From Escherichia coli (GTDB lineage: Bacteria; Pseudomonadota; Gammaproteobacteria; Enterobacterales; Enterobacteriaceae), in assembly GCF_003790525.1 (NCBI RefSeq), contig NZ_CP033633.1: a stretch of DNA of 64,000 nucleotides; one strand, given 5' to 3'. The notes under the pieces are model-generated. The model did not search any database and was not told the DNA's origin. It saw only the letters and a list, made by a program, of their open reading frames with translations. Both the position numbers and the translations under genes were made by a program. Positions 46,756 to 47,461 of the stretch are shown piece by piece (position 1 is the first letter of the stretch; each line of letters begins with the position of its first letter).

Positions 46756-46827
46756 TGTCCGAAATCGACCTGTTTCGGACATTGTTAAACAGATATATCC
46801 GAAAGTCAGCAAAATTACTTTCGGACA
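46756..46827 (+). promoter_or_regulatory. res-like recombination site upstream of the resolvase gene
   Basis: Two palindromic subsites: TGTCCGAAA-tcgacctg-TTTCGGACA (46756-46781) and TCCGAAAGT-cagcaaaatt-ACTTTCGGA (46799-46827). Confidence 0.55.
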
Positions 46828-46870
46828 TGCATTATAATATGTACACCCATTTCGTACAGAAGATCTCACT

Positions 46871-47461
46871 ATGTCTCGAATTTTTGCCTATTGTCGGGTT
46901 TCCACTCTGGAACAGACGACCGAAAATCAACGTCGGGAAATCGAAAGCGCGGGTTTTAACGTCAGACCCCAACGAATAATAGAAGAACAAATTAGTGGAT
47001 CAGTAGCAGCCAGTGAACGTCCAGGTTTTAACCGGTTGCTTGATCGTCTGGAAAGTGGCGATGTATTGATAGTCACAAAACTGGATCGCCTCGGTCGTAA
47101 TGCAATGGATATCAGGAAAACAGTGGAGCAACTGACCGAATCTGGCATCAGGGTGCATTGCCTGGCATTAGGTGGTGTTGATCTGACCAGTCCGGCAGGA
47201 AAAATGACAATGCAAGTGATTTCAGCGGTCGCTGAATTTGAACGAGATCTTTTACTTGAACGAACTTATTCAGGGATAGCAAGAGCACGGGATGCAGGAA
47301 AACGTTTTGGTCGCCCACCGGTATTAAATGAAGAACAAAAACAGAAGGTACTCGAACGCATTAAGTCTGGGGCAAGTATAAGTGCTATTGCCAGGGAATT
47401 CCGAACCACACGGCAAACAATTCTGAGAGTTAGAGCGAAACAGCAAACTGTTACTGTATAG
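46871..47461 (+). CDS. serine recombinase (resolvase family)
   Basis: 196 aa; N-terminal catalytic [12 protein letters not shown] with active-site Ser; C-terminal HTH. Confidence 0.8.

Follow-up and report, generated by a model that had tools for sequence, protein, structure and literature searches.

The 64-kb stretch of Escherichia coli DNA analyzed here, referred to below as the window, carries a gene for a small serine resolvase (tnpR) that is preceded by two palindromes and bracketed by 38-bp terminal repeats of the Tn3 transposon family. A sequence-only reading had pointed out the palindromes, which indeed occupy positions 46756 to 46781 and 46796 to 46827, as well as the 196-aa resolvase behind them, whose ORF at 46871 to 47461 was confirmed by Pfam as that of a serine recombinase. 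The same reading placed a tyrosine-type protein, ResD, at 62916, and this assignment is supported at the domain level (Phage_integrase family, after the CcdB gene). Absent from that reading were the half-site cluster at 46836 to 46858, the terminal repeat at 47470 to 47507, and the diverged terminal repeat at 46656 to 46693. The features of the region are as follows.

45811–46370, minus strand: ParE/RHH toxin–antitoxin (TA) operon, the nearest upstream transcription unit, encoding an RHH DNA-binding antitoxin
46656–46693, plus strand: diverged 38-bp Tn3-family terminal repeat of IR-L type, GGGGTCAGTTTGGAATTCGGAAAATAAACCATGTTAAG, assigned to a TIME-like miniature element
46694–46755, plus strand: linker of the miniature element, 62 bp, between IR-L and res site I
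46725–46737, plus strand: hairpin CGCCAGAATGGCG within the linker
46756–46781, no strand: predicted res site I (site A, the first palindrome), 26 bp, TGTCCGAAA-TCG AC CTG-TTTCGGACA
46796–46827, no strand: predicted res site II (site B, the second palindrome), 32 bp, TATCCGAAA-N14-TTTCGGACA
46833–46838, plus strand: putative −10 hexamer of tnpR, TATAAT, between sites II and III
46836–46858, no strand: candidate res site III, 23 bp, with a strong half-site TTTCGTACA at 46850–46858
46871–47461, plus strand: tnpR, 196-aa small serine resolvase (Pfam; alignment to Gin)
47470–47507, minus strand: IR-R of the transposon, GGGGTCCGCTTGGAAAACGGAAAATATCCCACGCTAAG, starting 8 bp past the tnpR stop codon
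62916–63725: ResD-type ORF, a Phage_integrase-family protein directly after the CcdB gene

The tnpR product combines a Pfam Resolvase N-terminal domain (E = 1e-38) with a C-terminal HTH_7 domain (E = 8e-11), and so has the Ser-nucleophile catalytic domain and C-terminal HTH of a small serine recombinase. Its catalytic motifs are intact (R9, S11, and D72-R73-x-x-R76, plus a helix), and the RVST, LDRLGR, and ERxxxxERT motifs align with those of Gin invertase in the PDB alignment. Plasmid-borne recombinases outside the clade of this protein share at most ∼41% identity with it, and no binding, cleavage, or resolution experiment on this TnpR or its clade was found in the literature.

The closest solved structure is that of Gin (E = 5e-30), versus modest scores for the γδ resolvase (E = 6e-25) and the Tn3 resolvase (E = 3e-24), and the top NCBIfam match is the Mpi invertase family. 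The hix and gix sites of DNA invertases are 26 bp long, which is also the length of site A. These matches would fit a protein that is a DNA invertase, with site A serving as one 26-bp crossover site of an invertible segment. We rejected this assignment as highly improbable. With 91 bits, the NCBIfam match stays far under the family cut-off of 272, the 64-kb window contains no second palindrome resembling site A, and the gene is linked to a transposase gene (tnpA) as well as to three neighboring sub-sites that differ in spacing. Moreover, simple insertions of the corresponding transposon on several replicons, described below, imply resolution.

The two palindromes have the half-site TGTCCGAAA in common. 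In site I, perfect arms of 9 bp each are separated by an N8 spacer; site II is 6 bp longer and can also be written TaTCCGAAAGT-N10-ACTTTCGGACA, in which 11 of 12 positions are complementary. When both strands of the 64-kb window were searched, the exact 9-mer TGTCCGAAA was found three times, always within the same 72 bp, whereas a random 9-mer would be expected ∼0.5 times in 128 kb. Of the 19 matches with at most one mismatch, five likewise fall within 46756 to 46858, as do 5 of the 10 matches in the window that reach at least 11 bits with a half-site weight matrix, a count that is slightly circular because the matrix was derived from 40 half-sites at ten loci, including the four sites of the window itself.

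These ten loci, whose TnpR proteins range from 100% down to 62% identity, come from E. coli, Klebsiella, Enterobacter, Erwinia, Arsenophonus, Swingsia, and Pseudosulfitobacter. Relative to the ATG, their half-sites lie at −115(+), −100(−), −75(+), −54(−), and −23(−), with varying spacers, and the 9-N8-9 geometry of site I and the 9-N14/15-9 geometry of site II are each retained at all ten. Since position and spacing are kept with the gene across loci down to 62% identity, the palindromes are rightly read as predicted recombinase binding sites that form a res for the adjacent serine resolvase, wherein sub-sites of differing half-site spacing lie directly upstream of tnpR. The central dinucleotide of site I is a nonpalindromic AC/GT at seven of the ten loci, and from the sequence we infer that the central AC at 46768 to 46769 is the predicted crossover point. 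The proposal of a res-like site built of two subsites holds insofar as the res belongs to the adjacent resolvase, as its conservation at ten loci indicates, but not as to the number of subsites, given that a third candidate cluster of half-sites exists.

In this third cluster, the strong half-site is accompanied by a weak half-site-like element in the same orientation at 46836 to 46846, which in the window scores below the 6-bit reporting threshold. At eight of the ten loci, the half-site located at −23 relative to the ATG reaches 8 to 13.5 bits, and five loci have another minus-strand half-site, located at −34 to −36 (7.1–14.6 bits), which is weak in the window. An inverted repeat (TGTAC-N9-GTACA, 19 bp) that had been considered for site III fits the window but not the relatives, in which the left arm reads as a same-orientation half-site.

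The hexamer TATAAT that lies between sites II and III is found at eight of the ten loci and is replaced by TATATT and TATGAT at two alphaproteobacterial loci, and its distance from the ATG is fixed. We infer that it forms the −10 element of the tnpR promoter. No −35 element is recognizable and a simple promoter scan gave no call at this promoter; the right arm of site II falls where the −35 element and spacer would be. When positions 45700 to 47800 were searched against Rfam (E ≤ 1), the sole match was a chance one to alpha-tmRNA (12.8 bits), and thus no known RNA accounts for the conserved noncoding DNA.

The sequence-only reading had itself considered that the palindromes might instead be the operator of the ParE/RHH TA operon, which is the nearest upstream unit and encodes an RHH DNA-binding antitoxin. 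This is barely credible. The start of the operon is 385 bp from site A, with a terminal repeat and a 223-bp replicon-derived segment lying between them, and the operon has a promoter-like site of its own (46416..46387) together with repeats of TTAATCATA directly upstream of the antitoxin gene. Both are conserved at the one other locus with the TA pair that was inspected directly (L016), where no half-site matches occur between this pair and repA. Furthermore, the plasmids that have the TA pair number at least 1,451, as against ∼100 with the IR-L, res, and tnpR arrangement of the window, and the palindromes accompany tnpR into replicons that lack this TA pair.

The origin of the module is indicated by its matches elsewhere. 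The TnpR of the window is identical at 196 of 196 residues to TnpR WP_000086536.1, which is encoded by a complete transposon of 3,815 bp with perfect 38-bp inverted repeats and a 994-aa TnpA (RefSeq: Tn3 family transposase). The order of parts in this element is IR-L, tnpA, res, tnpR, and IR-R, wherein tnpA and tnpR are divergent; the tnpA start of intact elements lies ∼50 bp to the left of site I. The IR-R of the window has no mismatches to either IR of the complete element (loci L019–L023), which occupies positions 301 to 4115 in L020. DUF4158 and DDE_Tnp_Tn3 domains were detected by Pfam in a frameshifted tnpA copy (L002) and in a diverged relative (L005), and the complete element has duplicated 5 bp of target at four different sites (TTTTT, TTATA, GTATA, and TTTTA). 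With its DDE transposase, ∼38-bp IRs, and 5-bp duplications, it is a member of the Tn3 family.

This element is present in 57 E. coli genomes and in up to four replicons of one strain, where identical simple insertions occupy all four. The res–tnpR unit is found beside tnpA in a chromosome, in a plasmid that encodes a phage C1 repressor, and in several further plasmids. The perfect IRs, the target duplications, and the spread over replicons indicate that the transposon is active and that its cointegrates are resolved. RefSeq gives its transposase only the generic name “Tn3 family transposase,” which suggests that no named ISfinder element was matched, and nothing relevant naming this transposon was found in the full-text literature; one plasmid-curing paper targeted another resolvase, on an IncX4 plasmid (PMC11537010). 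The window itself holds only the IR-R, res, and tnpR of the transposon and has no tnpA.

The proposal that the module represents a plasmid-lineage resolution system therefore gives way to its identification as the res–tnpR end of a Tn3-family transposon, given the 100% identity of TnpR and the IR-R that follows the gene. A native multimer-resolution system, whose res and resolvase evolved in the plasmid backbone mainly to stabilize the plasmid, like ParA/res of RK2, is distinctly unlikely, although a single res with an intact resolvase gene in cis suffices for dimer resolution and the arrangement is fixed in ∼100 ColV/ColBM-type plasmids. A relative in Erwinia pEA29 (82% identity) also lies ∼1 kb from parA/parG and lacks an annotated transposase in its vicinity. 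However, the module is bounded by Tn3-family terminal repeats, the element that encodes an identical TnpR moves among plasmids, a phage-plasmid, and the chromosome, and the same res–tnpR unit sits beside tnpA in unrelated replicons, a pattern that is not that of a module inherited with its replicon. The origin of the module and its present use are nonetheless separate questions, and dimer resolution could be a side benefit.

The left end of the module has a different source. Its 38-bp repeat at 46656 to 46693 differs from the transposon IR at eight positions, retaining the outer GGGG and inner TAAG, and is identical at 37 of 38 positions to the IR-L of a miniature element at locus L017. Judged by this similarity, the repeat belongs to the TIME-like miniature element and not to the transposon that donated tnpR. 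The miniature element (L017, L004, and L025) is 292 bp long and consists of two Tn3-family IRs, a noncoding core, and a decayed three-part res; in L017, the two IRs around a short core that lacks transposition genes conform to the features of a TIME. It was found complete in one context only, between cbi and cvi, with near-matching flanks (TTAAA/TTATA). The stretch that the window shares with it, 46656 to 46767, also occurs in L004, L003, and L018.

The change from one parent to the other is abrupt. Positions 46656 to 46767 are 96.4% identical to L017 (108 of 112), whereas identity to L017 right of the site I center is 56.9%; conversely, the window is 47.9% identical to the transposon left of this center and 99.2% identical over the 740 bp to its right. 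Homology switches from the miniature element to the transposon within 46766 to 46768, next to the central AC. This switch of parents suggests that site A is the crossover site, res site I, with strand exchange at the center of the tnpA-proximal site, and a junction at this point would also explain the absence of tnpA. The module thus appears to be recombinant, in that another, miniature element contributed the left half-site I together with the DNA beyond it on that side. Serine recombinases need matching central dinucleotides, and the site I center is TA in the present-day miniature element and AC in both the window and the transposon; the sequenced copies are therefore not the exact parents. 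A “before” state, with the miniature element beside the IncFII-type 223-bp segment, was not found. Homology breaks at res site I are known as a signature of inter-transposon recombination (PMC7157771).

The same evidence bears on whether the palindromes could be only operators for tnpR autorepression, with the real crossover site elsewhere or lost. Sites II and III flank the conserved TATAAT, so that repression is expected, and the module has lost tnpA as well as half of its original site I. However, site I is 52 bp upstream of the −10 hexamer, which is too far for an operator serving only tnpR; the homology of two independent lineages changes precisely at the center of this site, and the replaced left half-site matches the consensus perfectly. 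We consider a purely operator function very unlikely.

Taken together, these findings make it very probable that the module is the leftover res–tnpR end of a small active Tn3-family transposon, joined at the crossover site to a related miniature element. Positions 46768 to 47507 would be the right-hand 740 bp of the cryptic 3,815-bp transposon, from which the right half of site I, sites II and III, the tnpR promoter, tnpR, and IR-R have probably been kept. At the center of site I, this DNA would have been joined to the left arm of the miniature element (46656–46767), comprising IR-L, the 62-bp linker, and the left half of site I. The join most likely arose from TnpR-mediated recombination between two res sites, and, if these were in direct repeat, the joining event would have deleted tnpA.

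According to the Tn3/γδ paradigm, all three sites (26 bp for site I and 32 bp for site II) would be occupied by TnpR dimers. Where a single supercoiled molecule carries two copies of res in direct repeat, as a plasmid dimer would, or a cointegrate with an incoming transposon copy, these would synapse via the accessory sites, whereupon Ser11 would cleave both DNA strands at the AC in the center of site I, the subunits would rotate, and the ends would be rejoined to give two circles. TnpR bound to sites II and III, which flank and overlap TATAAT, would also repress tnpR. Because tnpA is absent, the module in this plasmid cannot transpose. It should recombine with other copies of the same res, and resolution of dimers of this plasmid by the module is plausible.

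The unit from 46656 to 47507 measures 852 bp and has two Tn3-family terminal repeats around a res and a complete tnpR, with no transposase. It is held by ∼100 ColV/ColBM-type plasmid records, and the eight that were inspected or listed with annotation all share its flanks in the window, TTAGC and AAGGA, which form no 5-bp direct repeat. Classification of the unit as a TIME was rejected: it carries a complete tnpR, its flanks lack 5-bp repeats, and the copies examined occur in a single context. It is unlikely that the unit is a nonautonomous element mobilized in trans by the TnpA of the 3.8-kb transposon and resolving its own cointegrates; if it were, it would be a “resolvase-carrying miniature transposon,” intermediate between TIMEs and full Tn3-family elements.

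Several consequences follow for these virulence plasmids. What is annotated generically as a “recombinase family protein” in ∼100 ColV/ColBM plasmids very probably belongs to the resolution module of an unnamed active E. coli transposon, and for its clade, so distant from other plasmid-borne recombinases, a three-part predicted map of res with a predicted cleavage point is now available. As a probably live recombination site, this res could bring about fusion of the plasmid with any replicon carrying the transposon, or deletion against it, and it could add to dimer resolution alongside ResD. The way in which such systems are understood is unchanged; the locus adds a well-supported case of modular exchange at res site I.

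Comparison with known systems reveals a mixed affiliation. As in Tn3 and γδ (Tn1000), a small serine recombinase with a C-terminal HTH is encoded beside a res located between divergent tnpA and tnpR, with the accessory sites nearest tnpR and the crossover in the tnpA-proximal site I. Promoters inside res imply, as in those elements, that the resolvase should autoregulate. The outer bases of the Tn3 half-site consensus, TGT...ACA, are shared as well. In both systems, site II exceeds site I by 6 bp (Tn3 spacer differences, PMC9943657), and site III adjoins tnpR in the Tn3 arrangement (PMC7157771). The lengths of sites I and II differ from those in Tn3 (26 and 32 bp here, 28 and 34 bp there), the center is AC/GT at seven of ten loci instead of AT, candidate site III does not resemble a short inverted repeat, and the terminal repeats and TnpA are of Tn21 type.

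The affinity to the Tn21 subgroup (Tn21, Tn1721, TnAs3, and ISPa38) lies in a TnpA ∼56% identical to TnAs3- and ISPa38-type transposases and in 38-bp IRs that follow the Tn21 pattern GGGG...GAAAACGGAAAATA...CACGCTAAG. IS4321 targets Tn21-type IRs, and a copy of it lies ∼80 bp past the tnpA end of the relative at L005. Tn21-type elements differ in having colinear tnpR and tnpA genes and a res located upstream of tnpR (PMC7157771); here the two genes are divergent, and TnpR falls in a separate clade.

Hybrids formed at res site I have been described by Lima-Mendez et al. (2020) for Tn5501/TnTsp1 and Tn5501.12/Tn4662a (PMC7157771). The module resembles them in its abrupt change of parent at the site I center, each side matching another parent, and differs in that one partner is a gene-less miniature element and the product has two IRs, a res, and tnpR without a transposase. 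The 292-bp element behind the left arm of the window shares the design of the TIMEs with res sites, IS101 and TIME244 (PMC13367494, PMC4133298), except that its res is related to the present TnpR clade and not to Tn21 or Tn3 res; the 852-bp unit, in contrast, carries a full tnpR, which TIMEs by definition lack. Finally, Sin site II is an accessory site made of direct-repeat half-sites (PMC9943657), and candidate site III may be of this kind, in which case the res described here would join a Sin-type direct-repeat accessory site to Tn3-like sites I and II. Sin and β systems use two sub-sites and a host DNA-bending protein, whereas three recombinase sites are predicted here.

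As the sequence-only reading had proposed, two palindromes precede the gene for a 196-aa serine resolvase (TnpR), whose Pfam matches are to the Resolvase catalytic domain (E=1e-38) and to HTH_7 (E=8e-11). Sites A and B, as we call these palindromes, share a half-site, and the 9-bp arms of site A are perfect repeats around an 8-bp spacer. The exact 9-mer TGTCCGAAA occurs three times when both strands of the 64-kb window are counted, always inside the same 72 bp, and 5 of the 19 window matches with one mismatch or fewer fall within 46756-46858.

Features of the resolvase module
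46656-46693, diverged terminal repeat GGGGTCAGTTTGGAATTCGGAAAATAAACCATGTTAAG (differs from the transposon IR at 8 positions; GGGG on the outer and TAAG on the inner side kept), followed directly by a 62-bp linker
46756-46781, site A, TGTCCGAAA-TCGACCTG-TTTCGGACA, 26 bp
46796-46827, site B, TATCCGAAAGT-N10-ACTTTCGGACA, 32 bp
46871-47461, tnpR
47470-47507, minus strand, terminal repeat IR-R, GGGGTCCGCTTGGAAAACGGAAAATATCCCACGCTAAG, 8 bp after the tnpR stop codon

The upstream region was compared among ten loci encoding TnpR relatives (100% down to 62% protein identity) from E. coli, Klebsiella, Enterobacter, Erwinia amylovora pEA29, Arsenophonus and the alphaproteobacteria Swingsia and Pseudosulfitobacter. 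This clade is distinct, with identity no higher than about 41% outside it. In all ten loci, the 125 bp that precede the ATG can be aligned almost without gaps. A weight matrix made from their four strong half-sites (40 in total), and scanned on the same loci, finds matches at -115(+), -100(-), -75(+) and -54(-) from the ATG in 10 of 10, offsets that match site A (spacer of 8 bp) and site B (spacer of 14 or 15 bp). The half-site columns are nearly invariant (T36 G35 T35 C/A C37 G33 A38 A39 A40, each out of 40), and the spacers and inter-site DNA are variable. On this alignment, the palindromes are the predicted res sub-sites of TnpR.

The matrix finds a further half-site at -23(-) in eight of the ten loci. 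Both palindromes of the two-subsite res originally described stand, and a conserved third half-site at 46848-46858 is also present; in this form the predicted third sub-site appears real. A second minus-strand half-site occurs at -34 to -36 in five relatives (7.1-14.6 bits), and the equivalent window position, 46836-46846, is degenerate. Eight of the ten loci have an invariant TATAAT between site B and the half-site at -23, and this hexamer would be the tnpR -10 element; no convincing -35 element was found for this promoter, and a simple promoter scan made no call. The centre of site I is mostly the non-palindromic AC/GT. Because of the site sizes, and because the start of tnpA in intact elements lies some 50 bp past site A, the predicted order is tnpA, site I (A), site II (B), site III, tnpR.

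The RVST, LDRLGR and ERxxxxERT motifs of TnpR align with those of the Gin invertase, and there is therefore no sign of inactivation. Gin is also the best structural match, which favors reading the protein as a DNA invertase. Against this reading, the 64-kb window holds no partner site, the Mpi family score is one third of the cut-off, and the resolvase gene is tied to tnpA.

Features flanking the module
45811-46370, minus strand, ParE toxin and RHH antitoxin pair
46437-46658, 223-bp non-coding segment, located about 1.5 kb from the IncFII repA of thousands of IncF plasmids
47529-47666, truncated IS3-family transposase, rve_3 domain
beyond this transposase, iron ABC transporter cluster

The possibility that the palindromes are instead the operator of the ParE/RHH operon, raised in the sequence-only reading itself, does not hold. 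Right at its start the operon has a promoter-like site of its own (46416..46387, minus) and TTAATCATA repeats, and a plasmid locus where the pair adjoins repA (L016) keeps both, with no half-site matches between. Moreover, the pair is present in at least 1,451 plasmids versus about 100 with the arrangement of the window. A TAATCA/TGATTA inverted repeat lies with the TTAATCATA repeats just upstream of the antitoxin start (46371-46420), and these promoter-proximal repeats are the likely true operator.

The 223-bp segment, found in more than 5,000 IncF plasmids and without an Rfam match, has two window copies of 96% identity in opposite orientation (46437-46658 and 21173-21395). The one next to ParE/RHH appears to be what is left of a second IncFII-type replicon region. 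The window has a 99.5% match to virulence plasmids of the ColBM/ColV type, for example pAPEC-O1-ColBM.

The IR-R 38-mer GGGGTCCGCTTGGAAAACGGAAAATATCCCACGCTAAG forms, with 0 mismatches, both ends of a 3,814/3,815-bp element on other E. coli replicons, arranged as IR-L, tnpA (leftward), res, tnpR (rightward) and IR-R. Its TnpA has 994 aa, and its TnpR is identical to the window protein at 196/196 residues. The complete transposon is present in 57 of 5,426 complete E. coli genomes, often on several replicons per strain: the chromosome and three plasmids of OkiPb01717, three plasmids of MN06021, and two replicons each in SJ7 and RM10386. Four copies were inspected, at unrelated sites, and each is flanked by 5-bp direct repeats.

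Inspected transposon copies and their target duplications
OkiPb01717 chromosome, L020 301-4115, between marA and marR, TTTTT
plasmid with a phage C1 repressor gene, TTATA
pSJ7-2, GTATA
pRM10386-2, TTTTA

The TnpR identity, the shared IR and the multi-replicon copies with 5-bp duplications establish that the window resolvase is the TnpR of an active, cryptic Tn3-family transposon. Insertion between marA and marR could change regulation of the mar (multiple antibiotic resistance) operon. RefSeq names the transposase only as "Tn3 family transposase", and the searchable literature contains no mention of the protein accessions or the IR sequence; the transposon may already be named in ISfinder or TnCentral.

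Left of site A, the window is without tnpA. In pUTME-13 (96.6% identity), homology to the window starts exactly at site A, and to its left lies a divergent, frameshifted Tn3-family transposase with DUF4158 and DDE_Tnp_Tn3 domains. The window IR-R abuts the truncated IS3-family transposase gene (47508-47666), and in pUTME-13 the full transposon lies about 49 bp deeper within the homologous IS remnant (L002 1940-1962, 5754-5775); the two joins, both to this short remnant, are separate.

The left arm matches a 292-bp element that other plasmids, of the ColV/ColBM type, carry between their genes for colicin B and colicin V immunity (L017 3001-3292; L004 2957-3248; L025 1501-1783). This element comprises a Tn3-family IR-L, the 62-bp linker, a decayed but recognizable three-part res related to those of the TnpR clade, and a decayed IR-R. 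It is a Tn3-derived, TIME-like miniature element; some TIMEs are known to carry res sites (PMC13367494). At least 80% of it is present in 565 plasmid records; all three complete copies that were inspected lie in one and the same context, with nearly matching flanks (TTAAA and TTATA).

Other observations concern this arm. A relic of this miniature element, with IR-L, linker and a site-I-like palindrome, abuts the pemK 3' end (L003 2960-3071; L018 3001-3110). Thousands of IncF plasmids are reported to have homology to 46700-46767; in the two loci inspected, L003 and L018, it stops just past the palindrome. The linker contains a hairpin, CGCCA-GAA-TGGCG (46725-46737), which the compensatory double change CACCA-GAA-TGGTG in the IncFII relic L003 hints is a conserved DNA or RNA structure.

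Compared with the miniature element (L017), the window is 96.4% identical left of the site A centre (108/112) and 56.9% right of it; compared with the transposon, it is 47.9% identical to the left and 99.2% to the right (734/740, to the IR-R end). When all three are aligned, the switch falls within 46766-46768, next to the central dinucleotide AC (46768-46769). For Tn3-family elements, a sudden break in homology at res site I is the published signature of resolvase-mediated exchange (PMC7157771, Fig. 6), and site A is the predicted crossover site of a recombinant. In the simplest history, TnpR would have carried out recombination between two res sites, one in a full transposon and one in a miniature element; had both been in direct repeat on one plasmid, the intervening DNA including tnpA would have been deleted. 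The unmatched flanks of the 852-bp unit (TTAGC and AAGGA) fit this history. Present-day miniature elements have TA rather than AC at the site I centre and are therefore not the exact parent; no plasmid keeping the pre-recombination state was found.

Among res-tnpR relatives, IR and a 123-aa hypothetical ORF lie left of site I in Enterobacter (L008 4439-5115), a hypothetical ORF in Arsenophonus (L009 4658-5121) and a RelE-type toxin/antidote pair in Swingsia (L012 3787-4500), the last in agreement with a published tendency of TA pairs to adjoin res site I. These varied neighbors fit modular exchange at site I.

Lacking tnpA, the 852-bp unit cannot transpose by its own means. That it could be mobilized in trans as a resolvase-carrying miniature transposon is quite improbable, because it has a single genomic context and no target duplications. 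The terminal repeats and the mobility of the same res-tnpR unit contradict the view that the module is a native plasmid resolution system; its use by the plasmid for dimer resolution is plausible. The unit still has an intact tnpR, a site I of consensus quality and the two accessory regions, and is therefore expected to resolve this plasmid's dimers and to recombine with any incoming transposon copy. Identical TnpR evidently supports resolution in nature, because simple insertions occur on several replicons of single strains; RecA-dependent resolution may instead have produced these insertions.

The tyrosine-type ResD placed at 62916 was borne out: the ORF at 62916-63725 encodes a Phage_integrase-family protein (269-aa tyrosine recombinase) directly 3' of the CcdB gene (pair, 62583-63725), which is the ccdAB-resD arrangement known from the F plasmid. 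This recombinase provides a second, unrelated resolution function.

Following the Tn3/gamma-delta paradigm, TnpR dimers would fill the three sub-sites, and two directly repeated res on one supercoiled circle would synapse via the accessory sites. Ser11 would make staggered cuts at the AC of site I, whereupon subunits rotate and the ends rejoin. Sites II and III lie on either side of the putative -10 hexamer and extend over the expected start of transcription, such that occupancy would repress tnpR.

The closest named transposases, TnAs3, ISPa38 and ISAcsp1 (54-56% identity), together with the IR pattern, point to membership of the transposon in the Tn21 subgroup. Its divergent tnpA/tnpR order and the sub-site order between the two genes are those of Tn3 (PMC7157771), and the 6-bp difference between sites I and II is the same as in Tn3 res, as deduced from spacer differences (PMC9943657). 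In the candidate site III, the partner half-site may be arranged as a direct repeat, not an inverted one, resembling Sin site II, in which half-sites are in direct repeat (PMC9943657). The module is of a well-known kind, Tn3-family TnpR/res, here a remnant of exchange at site I; specific to this case are the distinct TnpR clade, the 26- and 32-bp lengths of sites I and II with the mostly AC/GT centre, the possible direct repeat at site III, and the predicted miniature-element partner, which left an IR-bounded unit of res and tnpR only.
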